Below are positions 15,192 to 63,826 of a stretch of 64,000 nucleotides of DNA, piece by piece. Both the position numbers and the translations under genes were made by a program. The DNA is taken from positions 128,001-192,000 of the forward strand of contig JACOWZ010000003.1 of the NCBI GenBank assembly GCA_016176525.1, in the 5' to 3' direction. Position 1 is the stretch's first letter. Each line of letters starts with the position of its first letter. The notes below the pieces were generated by a model. It was not told the origin of the DNA. It did no database searches and saw only the letters and a program-made list of their open reading frames with translations. Source of the stretch: Candidatus Colwellbacteria bacterium (GTDB taxonomy: Bacteria > Patescibacteriota > Minisyncoccia > UBA6257 > Colwellbacteraceae).

Positions 15192-15263
15192 GCCCCTGTC
15201 GTTCAACGGATAGGATAACTGGCTTCGAACCAGTGGATGGGAGTTCGATTCTCTCCGGGGGCA
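15192..15263 (+). tRNA. tRNA-Arg (anticodon UCG), no encoded CCA
   Basis: Hand fold: acceptor GCCCCTG/CGGGGGC, anticodon loop CTTCGAA, T-loop TTCGATT. Sister tRNA at 54612 has near-identical arms with anticodon CCT. Confidence 0.7.
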
Positions 15264-15266
15264 CAC
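15246..15266 (+). repeat. Direct repeat copy 1 (3' end of tRNA-Arg): CGATTCTCTCCGGGGGCACAC
   Basis: Identical 21-mer recurs at 15413-15433. Confidence 0.85.
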
Positions 15267-15273
15267 AAACAAA

Positions 15274-15306
15274 AACAAACCCAATAAAAGTGGGTTTGTC
15301 TTTGTT
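15274..15306 (+). terminator. Intrinsic terminator after tRNA-Arg
   Basis: Perfect 9-bp stem ACAAACCCA/TGGGTTTGT with 7-nt loop, then CTTTGTTTG. Confidence 0.7.
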
Positions 15307-15412
15307 TGATATGTTTTAGCGAATCGAAGACCGCAGCCGATTTTTAAGCTTCAAAAATCGGCGAGGGGCGGCCTGCGAGCGCGACGAGCGACGGCGAGGA
15401 GCGACTTGTAGG

Positions 15413-15433
15413 CGATTCTCTCCGGGGGCACAC
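15413..15433 (+). repeat. Direct repeat copy 2 of the tRNA-Arg 3' end (att-like remnant)
   Basis: Exact 21/21 match to 15246-15266, immediately upstream of the GC-rich genes. Confidence 0.85.
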
Positions 15434-15463
15434 TTGACAATTTAGGTTAAATATGCCATACTA
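15434..15463 (+). promoter_or_regulatory. Candidate sigma70-type promoter (TTGACA, ~17-18 nt spacer ending tatgc, weak -10)
   Basis: Same TTGACA-N17(..ttatgc)-TAnnAT architecture recurs at 16225 and 17174. Confidence 0.4.
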
Positions 15464-15545
15464 GTGGCAGTCCCTTTAATTAAAGGAGGAATGTTGTACG
15501 AACCAAACAGTAGAGAAAACCAACCAGCTTGGTCCTGCAGTACGA

Positions 15546-16151
15546 ATGGCTCTCGTGCAGATGGATTTTACTAATGAGGAGCTTGTGCCTCTCATTATTA
15601 AAAAACTCCAGCGCGAGAAGAAGCAACAGTTCGCAACCCGTAAAAGCAGACGAAGCGGCGCGCAACTCGTAGACATCCGGGATATTCTGGTGTCGGCAGA
15701 AACTCTCGCCGAAGGCCTGAAAAACGCCGGCTACGAGCTAACAGACGCGCACTACGAACCCCGGCAAGACCAGCGCAACCAAAACCGAACCTACCACATG
15801 GTGCGGTTCTGGTTTACGAGGAGTGAGCATGCAAAACCCTCCACAGACTTTCTGTCTGTGCGAGAGGGTGTGCTCTCCGAACTTGAGCGAATGCTTACAA
15901 CCAACTTCTGGAAGCAGTTGCGGGTATACCGCAACCCCTTCTACAGTCCGGAAACGGGCGAAGAAGTTGAAGAAGCGCGCACAATGTCGGTGAACCTCGG
16001 CGTGCCGGAACGGATCTTCGATGAAAAGAACGTCCGCCGCGAAGTATGGGTTCGGGACCAAAACGGGCTAAAAACCCACAAAACCGCGATCTCCCACGAT
16101 CTTAGCATCTACGCGGACAAAACCGCGATACATGCTGTAGGTCCGAGCTAG
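15546..16151 (+). CDS. Hypothetical protein (201 aa), GC-rich foreign-looking codon usage
   Basis: Long ORF with own promoter and terminator. No recognizable motif. Confidence 0.5.
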   Translation: MALVQMDFTNEELVPLIIKKLQREKKQQFATRKSRRSGAQLVDIRDILVSAETLAEGLKNAGYELTDAHYEPRQDQRNQNRTYHMVRFWFTRSEHAKPSTDFLSVREGVLSELERMLTTNFWKQLRVYRNPFYSPETGEEVEEARTMSVNLGVPERIFDEKNVRREVWVRDQNGLKTHKTAISHDLSIYADKTAIHAVGPS

Positions 16152-16170
16152 CGGTATCTCTCCCCAACTA

Positions 16171-16208
16171 GGGGCACAAAGGCAATCGCCAATGTGCCCC
16201 ATTTTTTT
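16171..16208 (+). terminator. Intrinsic terminator GGGGCACA..TGTGCCCC then ATTTTTTTATCC
   Basis: 8-bp GC stem plus T7. Confidence 0.65.
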
Positions 16209-16224
16209 ATCCACATATGGTGAC

Positions 16225-16253
16225 TTGACATAGAACAAGCTTTATGCTAACAT
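16225..16253 (+). promoter_or_regulatory. Promoter: TTGACA, 17-nt spacer, TAACAT
   Basis: Seen in sequence; conserved module. Confidence 0.5.
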
Positions 16254-16348
16254 TAGAAGCAGAGTTGGAAGAGGGTCTTCCAACTAACAGTACCTAGACA
16301 AAAGAAAAAGAGACCGGTAAAGCCGGAAAAATGAAGGAGAGAAGGGAA

Positions 16349-17089
16349 ATGCAAAAACTGCAAAACGGAATAACCGTAAAGAACGACGACCAGCGAACGA
16401 AGGAAGCTCTGGAGCGGGCGGAAGCAAAGAAGGCGAGCGTGATGCCGTGCATCACGGTACGCCTTGCGAAGAGTTCCGCAAGGCTTCTCGATGAGCTCAA
16501 GGAGAAGGGCATCAAACTGATCCCCGACCTTGAAAGCGACGGGCATGTGCTCGCTGCGTTCAAGGATGGAGAGAAAGTTCCCCTCGTCCTGGAGAGCGCG
16601 GTTGCAACCGGAGGAGCTCGCCCCACGATCCTTGAGTTCATGGGGCCGAAAGAACTCCGAAGCACCTACACTCGCTTCGCCGTGTCGCAGAGGGACTTCA
16701 GGGAGAAGACCTTTGCTCCGACCAAGCGCACGCGCTACAACAACTCCGCTGGTGAAGACGAGGTGCGGTGCATGTCGGAAGGACATGGCAAGGTTCAGGC
16801 GCCAGCGAAAACCGAGCTTGTCGTGTCCGAGGTCAACACCGATGGAGGGTGTATCATCACGGAGTACACCTTCACCGTCTCCACGAAGGACGGCGCGGTC
16901 AGCATCACGGCTCGCAAACTCGCCCAGTTCCAGATGGTTCCCCGAGAACTTCTGGGTCTGAAGCCTGCCATGGACCACGCATACGACGAAGCAACGCGTG
17001 ACGTGGAATTCTGGCAAGAGCGAGACAGGCAGAACAGGATCGGCCGGAACGGGAGCAACCACTTCCGCAACGGCCACCAGCACCGCTAA
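16349..17089 (+). CDS. Hypothetical protein (~246 aa), strongly GC3-biased (foreign) codon usage; start moved to the Met preceded by AAGGAGA
   Basis: Third-codon positions mostly G/C in contrast to native genes such as recA. The antisense 302-aa ORF 16253-17161 is a GC artifact. Confidence 0.55.
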   Translation: MQKLQNGITVKNDDQRTKEALERAEAKKASVMPCITVRLAKSSARLLDELKEKGIKLIPDLESDGHVLAAFKDGEKVPLVLESAVATGGARPTILEFMGPKELRSTYTRFAVSQRDFREKTFAPTKRTRYNNSAGEDEVRCMSEGHGKVQAPAKTELVVSEVNTDGGCIITEYTFTVSTKDGAVSITARKLAQFQMVPRELLGLKPAMDHAYDEATRDVEFWQERDRQNRIGRNGSNHFRNGHQHR

Positions 17090-17120
17090 GACCTTCGAAC
17101 TCTCTACCCACTCTTTTCCC

Positions 17121-17155
17121 GCCCAAACAGATTCGTCTGTTTGGGCACTTTTTTT
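17121..17155 (+). terminator. Intrinsic terminator GCCCAAACAG..CTGTTTGGGC then ACTTTTTTTATCC
   Basis: 10-bp stem plus T7. Confidence 0.7.
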
Positions 17156-17173
17156 ATCCAAATATTATATATA

Positions 17174-17202
17174 TTGACAATATAATATATTTATGCTAAA
17201 AA
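17174..17202 (+). promoter_or_regulatory. Promoter: TTGACA, 17-nt spacer, TAAAAA
   Basis: Same architecture as 16225. Confidence 0.5.
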
Positions 17203-17239
17203 ATAAGCAGTACTCCAAAAGATAGGGAGTCTGTTGTAG

Positions 17240-17881
17240 ATGAATGGAATGGAACTCGTGAGAACACTGCCGGTTTTAAAGCCGGTTGGAGTGCAGTTCC
17301 AAAAAGACACACTTGGGCAAGAAGAACTGCACCAAAACCTAAGGCATCTAGAAGATGCCGGTGTACCAGATACCGCCGTTAAAGTTGCCGAAACCAAAAA
17401 AGGCAGAGCTATAAGAGTTACGCTCTTAAACGGCATAGATGCACATGGATTGCAGAAAGACAATTCGTGGAAGCTGGGCGTAATCTTAGAGCTAGTGAGA
17501 AGCAAAGACCCGGACGAAAATTACGGAATCGGCCTTGCAGCCGTATACAGGATTCCGTTTGAGTATATCCAGGCACTTTGTTTACACCACAACGGAACCC
17601 GCAAATGGATAGCGCAGCTTAAGCGCAGCAACGCTTATGTTGTGCGAGCAAAAAAAGACGGCACATTAAACTTCTTCCACATTGATGCAAACTTTCCAGA
17701 TGGAAAGGTAAACGCTTTTTTGGAAGAAGACGAAGAACGCAGCCGAACTGATTATGCAGAAAGGCCACAACTCTTTACTGCTTTCGGCTTCGCTTTTCAG
17801 AACATGCAAACGAGACTGCCGGAACAATGGCAGCAATTTAGCCGCAACGGGCAGGCAAAAAGCTCTAGTGAAATTCACTAG
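17240..17881 (+). CDS. Hypothetical protein (213 aa), native-like codon usage
   Basis: ORF with promoter. No motif recognized. Confidence 0.5.
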   Translation: MNGMELVRTLPVLKPVGVQFQKDTLGQEELHQNLRHLEDAGVPDTAVKVAETKKGRAIRVTLLNGIDAHGLQKDNSWKLGVILELVRSKDPDENYGIGLAAVYRIPFEYIQALCLHHNGTRKWIAQLKRSNAYVVRAKKDGTLNFFHIDANFPDGKVNAFLEEDEERSRTDYAERPQLFTAFGFAFQNMQTRLPEQWQQFSRNGQAKSSSEIH

Positions 17882-17927
17882 AGCAATTTTTGTTTTGTAT
17901 TTGATGAAATATTCTAAATAGATAACG

Positions 17928-18527
17928 TTATAGACTAGATTGTTTATCTGCGATTCTCTTTTTAAGATCCGCTATTCTCAACTCCCTGGTGATCATATTT
18001 TTATTGAACTCCTTCAACTTGCTATTTTTCATAGAAATTTCCTTATAAACAGTCTCTAAAGATAAGGTTTCTGTGACTAATTCTTTTTCTATTTTCTTAA
18101 CGCCATCAACTTGCCTAGAAAGCTCTTTGTTTATTTCTCTGAGTTTTGTAGGACTAATTAGTTTTAACATAGAAGGAACGGCAACCGCATATGCGACAAA
18201 TGATGCAAAAGATATAAGACCCGTGCCGAGATCAATCGTACCGGCGAGATAATACGCCGGATAAAAAAATACTAAGGCGTTAATAAAATGGCTGGTGCTG
18301 CACCAAACCCCAAAGACGGTAATAACCAAAAAGACCCATCTAAAAGAGAAATCCTTCCTTTTGATATAGATATAAAAAAGCTCGGCTGGAATAACAAGAT
18401 AAGTGATGCCGATTAAAATATTGGCAATTATAAGCGTCCACATCAGCCCGATATTATTTGGAATAAAATGCGCACTGTGAGGCTCGAACCCGCCGGAGTT
18501 TAATATTAGATTAATAAAATCAAGCAT
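17928..18527 (-). CDS. Ethylene-binding-domain (ETR1 N-terminal)-like membrane sensor with C-terminal coiled coil; no kinase domain
   Basis: IPAELFYIYIKRK...FRWVFLVITVFGVWCSTSHFINAL aligns with ETR1 IPLELIYFVKK...[23 protein letters not shown]. C-x3-H copper ligands conserved. Confidence 0.65.
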   Translation of the reverse strand: MLDFINLILNSGGFEPHSAHFIPNNIGLMWTLIIANILIGITYLVIPAELFYIYIKRKDFSFRWVFLVITVFGVWCSTSHFINALVFFYPAYYLAGTIDLGTGLISFASFVAYAVAVPSMLKLISPTKLREINKELSRQVDGVKKIEKELVTETLSLETVYKEISMKNSKLKEFNKNMITRELRIADLKKRIADKQSSL

Positions 18528-19116
18528 GTTTGTTGTCTATATCAACCAATTGGGCTTCTAATTCTTTGACGGCGCTATCGCGATTCGCCATGATTCTATT
18601 AAAATTTTCCAATTCCTCGTTTTTCAATATCAAATTCTCGCTGGCTTTTTTGAGCTCTTCTTTCTTTACCGCAAGTTCTCCTAATTTAGACTCTCGACTT
18701 TTAATTTCATCAGAGAGAGATTTGTTGGCTTGCTGCATTTGTTCCGGGCTTACCAAACTAACAATGATAGGCAAGAAGTAAAGCATAGCTACCGCGGTCG
18801 CGGCCGAAACCAAAAAAGTTACGACGCTGATTATCGCCTGCAGATAATATGCCGGATACCAGAAGATAAGAACATGCATTAAATGGGTAAGGCCGCATAA
18901 GAAGATAAAAGCCCCGAAAAGCAAAACCATCCAGTTCAGATACAAATCCCTTCTTTTTCTAACGAAATATATGATTACAACCGGGATTAAGAGATAAGCC
19001 AAGAAACTGAAGGCATTCCCATACACCGACAGATCCATTGCAATCGGAGTATCAAAAAAGTGTGCTCTATGAGGTTCAAAAACAGAACCATCAAAAATTA
19101 ATTTAAGAAAGTCCAT
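18520..19116 (-). CDS. Ethylene-binding-domain-like membrane sensor, paralog 2. Start moved to the Met matching the paralog's N-terminus; the track's start at 19173 is GTG.
   Basis: IPVVIIYFVRKRR...NWMVLLFGAFIFLCGLTHLMHVL; Cys/His spacing as in ETR1. Extended -10 TGgTATAAT upstream. Confidence 0.65.
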   Translation of the reverse strand: MDFLKLIFDGSVFEPHRAHFFDTPIAMDLSVYGNAFSFLAYLLIPVVIIYFVRKRRDLYLNWMVLLFGAFIFLCGLTHLMHVLIFWYPAYYLQAIISVVTFLVSAATAVAMLYFLPIIVSLVSPEQMQQANKSLSDEIKSRESKLGELAVKKEELKKASENLILKNEELENFNRIMANRDSAVKELEAQLVDIDNKHA

Positions 19117-19278
19117 AGTAGAATACACAAAAAAATTATACCACGCGCTATTTAATAACAATCTAAAAAACACAACAGAAATCCGGTTTTGAATAATTTC
19201 CTATTCACCCCGACGCTACGTCGGGGCAAGCGGGAAACTCCCGTTTCCCGATCCCTTCCCAGTTCGATTCCCTATAAA

Positions 19279-19312
19279 TATAGAAACTTCACAATTATGT
19301 GAAGTTTCTATA
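19279..19312. terminator. Strong palindromic hairpin (13-14-bp perfect stem) downstream of tRNA-Glu
   Basis: TAGAAACTTCACA att ATGTGAAGTTTCTA. Confidence 0.6.
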
Positions 19313-19318
19313 TTTCAG

Positions 19319-19390
19319 TAGTCCCAAGGGGAATCGAACCCCTATTTGCGCCGTGAAAGGGCGCTGTCCTAGCCGTTAGACGATGAGACC
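19319..19390 (-). tRNA. tRNA-Glu (anticodon UUC)
   Basis: Hand fold: anticodon stem GCGCC/GGCGC, loop CTTTCAC, T-loop TTCGATT. Confidence 0.65.
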
Positions 19391-55764: not shown

Positions 55765-55835
55765 CGGGCTGTCGTATAATGGCAGTATACGTGTTTTGGG
55801 AACACGCGGCCTGGGTTCGATTCCCAGCAGCCCGA
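55765..55835 (+). tRNA. tRNA-Pro (anticodon UGG)
   Basis: Hand fold: loop TTTGGGA. Arms near-identical to tRNA-Pro at 13167. Confidence 0.6.
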
Positions 55836-55888
55836 CAAAAATAAAATATCTCGAGCGAGCAGTGAGAAGCGCAGCGTCCCAGCAGACC

Positions 55889-55915
55889 GACCAAAAGCGA
55901 AACCCCCTATTCGGG
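55889..55915. terminator. Bidirectional terminator GCGAAACCCCC tatt CGGGGGTTTCGC
   Basis: 11-bp perfect stem followed by an A/T-rich run. Confidence 0.65.
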
Positions 55916-63220: not shown

Positions 63221-63685
63221 TTAGTGCCTGTGCGCAATGGGTAGAGGGGGGAGCGTTGCCGCAACGTCGGCATGGCGGTGCTCGAGTTGCGCAAAGCTCC
63301 TTTTGAGTTCTTCGCTCTGCGGATGTTCGCGGCGCGAAGCAGTGTTCTCCTGCATCGCGGCAGTGTAGAACGAGACTTCACGTTCTTTCGGCCCCATCAA
63401 CTCATCGGGGCCGTGGTGATGGTCTCGAACCTGCTCAACCAAGAGCTTTGCCAAGAGTTCGCCAGGATCAAGCTCCAAGCTCATCTCTCCGTACCGGAGT
63501 GCAGCGTGGTCTGTCTTCTCGCCACCGGTGACGTACACGTGCCAACCCTTAAGGGCGAAGAGCGTAGATCGGGTGCTAACGATGATATCTGGCGGCAACC
63601 CTAACGCTTCCTCCAGCTCTTCTCTGGCTTCGTGGAACCGGCCGTTTTCCATCAGCATACGTACCTTCTCTGCATACGTTGGCAT
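63221..63685 (-). CDS. Hypothetical protein (~155 aa), GC-rich; start taken at MPTYAEK behind a GAGGAGG Shine-Dalgarno
   Basis: ORF plus SD. No motif. Confidence 0.4.
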   Translation of the reverse strand: MPTYAEKVRMLMENGRFHEAREELEEALGLPPDIIVSTRSTLFALKGWHVYVTGGEKTDHAALRYGEMSLELDPGELLAKLLVEQVRDHHHGPDELMGPKEREVSFYTAAMQENTASRREHPQSEELKRSFAQLEHRHADVAATLPPLPIAHRH

Positions 63686-63826
63686 TTTTTCTTCCTCCTC
63701 TTCTTTTTTTAACCTAGCCAACCACCTTAGTTGGCCTGCTGCTTTGCAGCTTAGCAGATTTTTAACGCTTTGTCAAGATTGGCGTTTGATTTTATACAAA
63801 TTCCGTAGTAATTTTTCAGAGTACAA

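Follow-up and report, generated by a model that had tools for sequence, protein, structure and literature searches.

Does the repeated 3' end of a tRNA gene necessarily mark the integration of a genomic island? The question is raised by the tRNA-Arg(TCG) gene of a Candidatus Colwellbacteria bacterium (assembly GCA_016176525.1, contig JACOWZ010000003.1), of which a stretch of 64,000 nucleotides (nt), referred to as the window, was analyzed. Duplicated tRNA ends are usually read as footprints of integrase-borne islands, and an earlier sequence-only reading accordingly proposed that the two copies of the tRNA-Arg end flank a GC-rich foreign island. We find instead the footprint of a tiny, gene-less, structured element. 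On balance we favor the view that two unrelated things adjoin here, namely a folded insertion of about 150 nt that is non-autonomous and strand-specific and lies at position 55/56 in the T-loop of tRNA-Arg, and separate foreign orphan open reading frames (ORFs). The small element belongs to a large family of the Candidate Phyla Radiation (CPR, Patescibacteria) that has any tRNA or transfer-messenger RNA (tmRNA) gene as target, and this family is without match in Rfam 15. Genomes of the CPR are regarded as streamlined, with little mobile DNA; the small element is widespread in these bacteria.

The repeated tRNA-Arg end and the element it encloses

The tRNA-Arg(TCG) gene, in which CCA is not encoded, occupies positions 15192 to 15264 of the plus strand (ARAGORN; Rfam RF00005, 57.4 bits). 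Its last 18 nt together with three trailer bases, CGATTCTCTCCGGGGGCACAC, form an exact direct repeat of 21 nt at 15246-15266 (DR1) and 15413-15433 (DR2), both on the plus strand and with a spacing of 167, as the sequence-only reading had noted. A repeat of this kind occurred in none of 100 shuffles. DR1 comprises the T-loop from C56, the 3' strand of the T-stem, the 3' strand of the acceptor stem, the discriminator and three further nt. DR2 is the displaced copy of the tRNA 3' end and is joined precisely to the motif TTGTAGG, a junction which is the same in the 101 contigs described below. As the part of the gene from C56 onward stands on both sides of the insertion, the tRNA gene stays intact.

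The repeats do not flank the GC-rich genes, as had been supposed, but enclose 146 bp consisting of a terminator and a core of 93 nt, with zero coding capacity between the two copies; the ORFs follow farther right, after DR2. The terminator had been recognized before. It follows the tRNA directly as a symmetric series of A-run, hairpin and T-run at 15266-15308, assigned to neither strand (inverted repeat I2 with 18-nt arms, 94% complementary), and a terminator scan places the hairpin at 15275-15299, followed by the T-run. This region corresponds to the variable spacer of the insertion. The core (15320-15412, plus strand) aligns with 83 other copies and shows covariation with them. It carries the motifs GAAGACCGCAGC, CTGCGA and TTGTAGG in this order (15326-15412), and its helices can be assigned as follows. 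The 5' strand of P1 is GCGAATCG and pairs with the start of DR2, the junction reads AAGA, P2 is formed by CCGC with GCGG, and P4 by CCTGCGA with TTGTAGG. What had been described as a perfect palindrome of 25 bp at 15336-15360 is helix P3, a hairpin at 15336-15362 with a 10-bp stem (15336-15345 with 15353-15362) and a 7-nt loop, AAGCTTC, that includes the HindIII site. The single-sequence fold of the window core reaches -47.4 kcal/mol (z = -2.3).

To place the segment among others we used 80 related loci, which were retrieved via the adjacent gene for the CCA-adding enzyme (57-65% identity to that of the window). These loci contain 277 tRNA genes, of which approximately 17 are followed, at a distance of 60-220 nt, by another copy of their own 3' end. 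In one locus (L072) a single sequence of about 135 nt stands behind both tRNA-Arg and tRNA-Lys(ttt), ending each time in the 3' end of the resident tRNA, and it has GAAGACCGCAGC, CTGCGA and TTGTAGG in common with positions 15326-15412 of the window. If these three motifs are combined into a search pattern, for which about one chance match is estimated, 101 metagenome contigs with 102 copies are matched; we refer to these elements as type B. In 101 out of 101 contigs TTGTAGG runs straight into C(G/A)AnTCC..., the sequence from C56 onward of a tRNA- or tmRNA-like 3' end. For 64 out of the 102 copies, which represent 26 anticodons and 16 amino acids, the cognate tRNA was located by ARAGORN on the same strand at 14-180 nt upstream. 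A tmRNA lies upstream of three further copies, 15 copies are cut off by the end of the contig, and most of the remaining ones have an upstream repeat copy with tmRNA-like ends. Every copy found beside a tRNA shares the orientation of that tRNA. The length of the repeat, counted from C56, peaks at 19-20 nt (18-20 nt in 24 out of 32) with a tail up to 61 nt, and tandem arrays of the element occur in three contigs (L217, L303, L262).

A second core, type A, has a different sequence (GGGGTCGGG-hairpin-GCGGA-hairpin-GAG). Its covariance model yields nine significant matches in 1.17 Mb, all nine of them directly 3' of a tRNA. When the window element (at E values up to 10), the type A loci and nine canonical type B loci were compared with the covariance models of Rfam 15, only tRNA was matched, and we found no description of such elements in the literature.

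The fold was derived from an alignment of 84 type B copies (that of the window and 83 others). From left to right the element is composed of DR1, a variable spacer, a segment complementary to the acceptor, the hairpin HP0, the left strand of P1, AAGA, P2, P3, P4 and DR2. The spacer measures 14 to about 180 nt and is often a terminator. The segment on its side is complementary to the 3' strand of the cognate acceptor, with at least six contiguous pairs in 26% of the cognate compared to 5.4% of the non-cognate comparisons. HP0 (GCAAGCCAA-CTGC-TTGGCTTGC) covaries heavily. In P1, GGGATTCG pairs with CGAATCCC, the start of DR2, and P4 has the family form CCUGCGA...UUGUAGG. The left arm is complementary to the T-loop, the T-stem and the acceptor 3' strand, hence to both copies of the tRNA end, and it shows covariation with those T-loop bases of the repeat that vary (column pair 107/233: UA 35, AU 19, GC 11, CG 8). 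The boundary between element and DR2 is the exact point of a three-way junction where P4 and P1 meet. The copy of the window keeps P1 to P4 and is without HP0 and the acceptor-complementary segment, as are about 10 of the 84 copies.

RNAalifold predicts 38 pairs, of which 25 show double-sided changes. Paired cells amount to 93.4%, compared to 32-47% if the partner columns are slid, and compensatory (double-sided) cells to 615, compared to 72-205 in the slid controls; none of 500 shuffles reached the observed structure values. Compensatory changes as expected for a structured single-stranded nucleic acid, be it RNA or single-stranded DNA, are present. P2 contains G-U pairs in nine sequences, and P4 contains two in 84 out of 84 copies, the latter being weakened as independent evidence as both fall within motifs fixed by the search pattern. 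Because G-U pairs would be A-C mismatches on the opposite strand, the fold belongs to the tRNA strand.

That the elements are insertions follows from the related genomes in which the same tRNA-Arg site is empty or differently occupied. Among 55 tRNA-Arg(tcg) sites in the relatives only six carry an element, so that most are empty, a comparison which the sequence-only reading had proposed as a check. One of the empty sites (L064) has a tRNA-Lys 9 nt after the tRNA. In another relative (L074), whose tRNA is nearly identical, a B-like element follows, and then the same tRNA-Lys 5 nt past DR2; DR2 is thus continuous with the original downstream DNA. A third relative (L015) carries an element of type A' at its tRNA-Arg(tcg).

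Two of the related loci contain tRNA-end duplications without A or B core. In L020 (5890-6112, minus strand) the 3' end of tRNA-Gly stands in three tandem copies 74 nt apart, and in L031 (5065-5260) a tRNA-Ser has a 49-nt duplication. In L027 a short hairpin and then GATTCTCTCCGGGGGCAC are found 38 nt downstream of tRNA-Arg(tcg); this sequence differs by three transitions from the resident tRNA end and equals the tRNA-Arg end of the window.

GC-rich genes beside the element

Three ORFs follow DR2 on the plus strand. The first, orfA (HYS87_00845, 15546-16151), encodes an orphan protein of 201 amino acids (aa) without family matches and has a GC content of 0.54 and a GC content at third codon positions (GC3) of 0.63 (z = 3.8). 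The second, orfB (16349-17089, 246 aa), reaches 0.59 and 0.73, respectively (z = 5.5). With 60 ORFs of the window as native reference (GC3 mean 0.40, standard deviation 0.06) both lie above the native maximum of 0.57, and the GC3 check confirms the foreign composition that had been suspected for them. The pattern of GC content over the three codon positions supports the plus strand over an antisense ORF of 302 aa. By composition and searches, orfC (HYS87_00855, 17240-17881, 213 aa) is an orphan with native-like GC3 (0.46).

Each of the three is a single-gene transcription unit with its own predicted promoter, a long 5' untranslated region (UTR) and its own terminator. A promoter scan places the orfA promoter (TTGACA, 17-nt spacer, TG-extended -10) at 15434-15462 and promoters of the same type at 16225-16253 for orfB and at 17173-17198 for orfC. 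Five sites of the form CTTGACA-N17-TG-extended -10 occur in the window compared to 0.7 expected, and three of the five precede orfA, orfB and orfC. The terminator of orfA, GGGGCACA...TGTGCCCC followed by a T-run, was read from the sequence at 16170-16209, and that of orfB was found by the terminator scan at 17121-17156. A split copy of the tRNA tail after the orfA stop codon (TCTCTCC..GGGGCACA) was seen by eye and dismissed, as it is without statistical support. The hexamer CAGTAC recurs in the 5' UTRs of orfA (15530-15545), orfB (16280-16290), orfC (17205-17215) and the orfB homologue (L213, 400-410).

Searches left the proteins nearly alone. The three are not paralogous among each other, none of them was found in the 80 related loci, whose relatives are distant (at most 65% identity), and word-indexed searches of 5.8 billion proteins returned only the proteins themselves. 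An exhaustive HMMER search with orfB found one distant homologue, P0004 (E = 1.7e-17, 35% identity over 198 aa). Its gene lies on a contig of 1.5 kb with the same type of promoter and has a GC content of 0.63 and a GC3 of 0.83 between flanks of 0.40 and 0.26, from which it follows that the GC-richness travels with the orfB gene unit. This poses a second question, namely why one small protein family stays GC-rich in two different AT-rich genomes. The 16-nt motif ACTCTCTACCCACTCT after the orfB stop codon (17099-17114, plus strand) is identical after the stop codon of P0004. It also explains the supposed degenerate third copy of the tRNA end at 17094, whose match to the tRNA tail is no better than in shuffles: as this sequence overlaps ACTCTCTACCCACTCT, it is part of the orfB unit rather than a remnant of an attachment (att) site.

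As had been stated before, the proteins are without recognizable domains and no integrase is present; orfA, orfB and orfC gave no domain with Pfam, PHROG, PADLOC or NCBIfam, and the segment between the repeats is non-coding. The suggestion of a role in accessory or defence functions found no defence-related signal, with zero PADLOC families for orfA, orfB, orfC and P0004. A tblastn search against phages returned nothing for the ORFs, and AlphaFold single-sequence models of the ORF proteins (pLDDT, the model confidence score, 35 and 43) were too poor for fold searches.

The DNA after DR2 at 54 other loci of the element shows no tendency to be GC-rich (mean difference -0.003), which indicates that the small element does not typically carry such ORFs as cargo. 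orfA and orfB, perhaps also orfC, lie outside the element and are orphan genes with a foreign composition and transcription units of their own.

Similar units were observed elsewhere. At 63221-63777 of the window (minus strand), beside tRNA-Trp, a GC-rich ORF (63221-63721, 166 aa, GC3 0.63) without family match has a promoter of the CTTGACA-N17 type. Two AT-richer relatives contain GC-rich single-gene units with consensus promoters (L010, 4907-5743, and L053, 13732-14460). The two encoded proteins are homologues of one another (E = 5e-8), each with a basic RRGDG...R tail at its end; orfB and P0004 also end in basic tails.

Alternative readings, related systems and possible mechanisms

The locus could still be a classical tRNA-targeted island, in which an integrase-borne element delivered orfA to orfC at the T-loop of tRNA-Arg and later lost the integrase and the right att site, with the 146-bp segment as leftover of a second event. 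We regard this as quite improbable. The position and extent of the repeat are typical of att sites of the T-loop type, and the ORFs adjoin DR2, are GC-rich and are absent from the relatives. To this extent the earlier proposal of integration cargo stands, as the repeat fits a tRNA-directed insertion and the ORFs are compositional outliers; what falls away is the connection, as nothing ties the ORFs to integration at tRNA-Arg. Of the features of such islands, direct repeats of the tRNA 3' end and absence in relatives were found; repeats bounding the cargo and an integrase were not. No right-hand repeat was found: with a pattern that allowed up to 6 edits and with local alignment, matches to the tail in 15434-19300 did not exceed those in shuffles. 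What had been proposed as a third copy is a motif that belongs to the orfB unit, and no integrase was detected among orfA, orfB and orfC with Pfam, PHROG and NCBIfam. The same small element is not followed by GC-rich DNA at the 54 other loci, and the orfB homologue lies beside a recG-like gene on its 1.5-kb contig without any tRNA.

The fold admits a different explanation, which we consider unlikely: the small element could be a resident cis-acting RNA of the pre-tRNA, whose left arm pairs either with the real tRNA end or with DR2 as a decoy, so that it serves as a switch for tRNA maturation or for the release of a tRNA-end-like fragment, its copies having arisen by local duplication. This would be in agreement with the covarying fold on the tRNA strand including its G-U pairs, the co-orientation of all copies beside tRNAs, the arm complementary to both tRNA-end copies, the lack of an own promoter and the lack of an associated mobility protein at 101 loci. 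A resident RNA agrees less well with relatives in which the same tRNA is empty or carries a different type of element, with tandem arrays, with the use of 26 different tRNAs plus tmRNA, with decayed and internally deleted copies, and with the strong terminator that separates tRNA and core in the window and several other copies. It is hardly credible that the repeat arose by chance or as an assembly artefact, such as a collapsed or chimeric join at the tRNA. Three contigs from independent Logan assemblies of the source samples (L001, L002, L003) do begin within the segment, at 15383, as at a branch of the assembly graph. The position equals k-1 = 30 nt before DR2, and we infer a de Bruijn branch at the boundary between core and DR2, provided that the core joins other tRNA ends in those samples. 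Apart from this shared start the three contigs are identical to the window; Logan and NCBI contigs agree base for base over 15383-19378, the exact 21-nt repeat never arose in shuffles, and the same architecture is found in more than 100 independent assemblies.

If the segment is taken as an inserted element separate from the ORFs, as we favor, it resembles several known systems in part. Among integrative elements targeted to tRNA and tmRNA genes there is reportedly a class with T-loop sublocation that uses tyrosine integrases of the P4 type. Such elements likewise have a repeat that begins in the T-loop and ends shortly after the 3' end, leave the gene intact, use tmRNA and form tandem arrays. 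The small element differs in its size of only about 150 nt, the lack of an integrase, one core at 26 tRNAs, an inverted copy of the target and a covarying RNA-like fold. A closer architectural parallel is offered by the integration of folded single strands, as in CTX phage and the integrative mobile elements exploiting Xer (IMEX), and by the attC sites of integrons. In these systems a direct copy, spacer, inverted copy, body and direct copy follow each other, and the structure is strand-specific and tolerant of G-T or G-U pairs. The order of DR1, complementary left arm and DR2 is present in the small element, which shares with them also the recombination point at the foot of a helix and the non-autonomous nature. 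It targets the tRNA T-loop and not dif or attI, its core is far more constrained in sequence than attC, and it is not known to depend on Xer or IntI.

Target-primed retro-insertion, as for short interspersed nuclear elements (SINEs) and R2-like elements, provides another comparison. A precise 3' junction, a variable 5' side and a duplication of variable length anchored at one end are found here as well; further likenesses are the co-orientation with, and dependence on the transcription of, the host gene, and a transcript carrying target-derived sequence. In contrast, the small element has no A-tail, and among the genes around the 101 loci neither a reverse transcriptase nor an endonuclease is recurrent. 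Target-primed retro-insertion is not known for bacterial non-intron elements. Bacterial miniature inverted-repeat transposable elements (MITEs) and repetitive extragenic palindromic (REP)-like repeats are, like the small element, short, multi-copy, intergenic, hairpin-folding and non-coding. Its position and orientation with respect to tRNA genes are strict, however, and its apparent inverted repeats are copies of the target, the right one lying within the duplication. The target duplication is anchored at C56 and covers 18-61 nt, typically 19-20 nt or longer, compared to 2-10 bp in MITEs, so that terminal inverted repeats with a short duplication of fixed length are not found.

Several other candidates were discarded. 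IS200/IS605 elements and omega-RNA were ruled out as a conserved end tetranucleotide and TnpB are absent, the IS110 bridge RNA for lack of a recombinase, and retrons for lack of a reverse transcriptase. Hammerhead, twister and hepatitis delta virus (HDV) ribozymes have no Rfam match and the cores do not fit. A casposon-like fixed duplication disagrees with the varying lengths, and a T-loop intron was considered and set aside.

We tentatively raise the possibility that the family represents an undescribed class of mobile elements: protein-less, about 150 nt long, homing to T-loop position 55/56 of nearly any CPR tRNA or tmRNA gene via a single-stranded RNA or DNA intermediate of the tRNA strand, sparing the gene by a duplication of its end of about 19 nt, and with at least two unrelated cores (A and B) sharing this strategy. 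The element would be copied via a single-stranded intermediate of the tRNA strand. In the version we prefer, the template would be the 3' trailer of a pre-tRNA transcript formed by read-through; the terminal T-loop sequence of the transcript could anneal and prime at a break in the T-loop of the target gene, the element would be copied in, and the duplication would result from a second break past the end of the tRNA. Such retro-copying could account for the invariant 3' junction, for DR2 always matching the resident tRNA, for a minimum repeat length with a long tail, and likewise for a 5' side that varies, for the strictly shared orientation and for a fold of RNA type. Alternatively, a folded single DNA strand might be integrated in the manner of CTX phage or attC, which would reproduce the direct-inverted-direct arrangement and fits the data about equally well. 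Should the family be mobile, a partner enzyme recognizing the T-arm of tRNA genes is needed, and the invariant junction TTGTAGG|C56 together with the strongly covarying fold makes this idea directly testable.

A number of points weigh against the reading of a mobile element unrelated to its neighbors. Retro-copying leaves the match of the left arm to the resident tRNA unexplained and needs a reverse transcriptase. Integration of a folded DNA strand requires the correct tRNA end on each copy, and that one family carries 26 different tRNA ends is then unexplained. No reverse transcriptase, recombinase or nuclease is tied to the element in the 101 loci, and none was identified in the window among the 25 of 104 Pfam families listed. 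The terminator between tRNA and core in the window and several other copies argues against efficient co-transcription. The type B pattern had no match in 2.9 million viral contigs, where scans with a 16-mer and a 14-mer gave only matches judged to be due to chance. An excised or empty allele of the window locus was not seen, and with no more than 65% identity of the flanking CCA-adding enzyme in the closest relative, the resolution of synteny is coarse. Finally, the ORFs directly adjoin DR2, and a historical link between them and the small element may exist.

Clustering of the ORFs near the 101 loci revealed no recurrent protein but housekeeping genes only, plus a small GIY-YIG protein in five loci. 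In one of them (L285, reverse strand, approximately 470-1120) the repeats are 593 nt apart, and a small GIY-YIG nuclease gene lies between tRNA-Gln and the core; similar genes are near the element in the four other loci.

Further scars and neighboring genes

The window has a GC content of 43% and 14 scattered tRNA genes. A Pfam scan of 64 window ORFs showed housekeeping functions, including recA, tsaD, SHMT and tRNA synthetases, among the 25 of 104 families listed. Besides tRNA-Arg two further tRNA genes carry a scar. Directly 3' of tRNA-Glu (19318-19390, minus strand) lies a type A-like element, GGGAATCGAACTGGGAAGGGATCGGGAAACGGGAGTTTCCCG..., at 19201-19275 of the minus strand (region 19181-19317), which was found with covariance model R1 (40 bits, E = 1.3e-7) and whose repeat is decayed. 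The third scar (55837-55891, plus strand) was read from the sequence 3' of tRNA-Pro(TGG) (55765-55836). There a remnant of 40 nt with GAGAAGCGCAGCG precedes 15 nt that repeat the tRNA end with one mismatch (55877-55891), and a terminator follows. From its sequence this scar looks like an internally deleted type B element. Scars at three out of 14 tRNA genes (Arg, Glu, Pro) can break assemblies and mislead programs that search for islands.

The tRNA-Glu element faces the tRNA-Arg element, with five genes in between. The Logan contig L001 ends within tRNA-Glu, which together with the shared start at 15383 points to branches of the assembly graph at tRNA-derived sequence. The minus strand encodes two paralogous membrane proteins in tandem at 17928-19173, each with an ETR1_N domain (ethylene-receptor-like N-terminal) and a coiled coil; neither of the two was found beside the gene for the CCA-adding enzyme in the 80 related loci.

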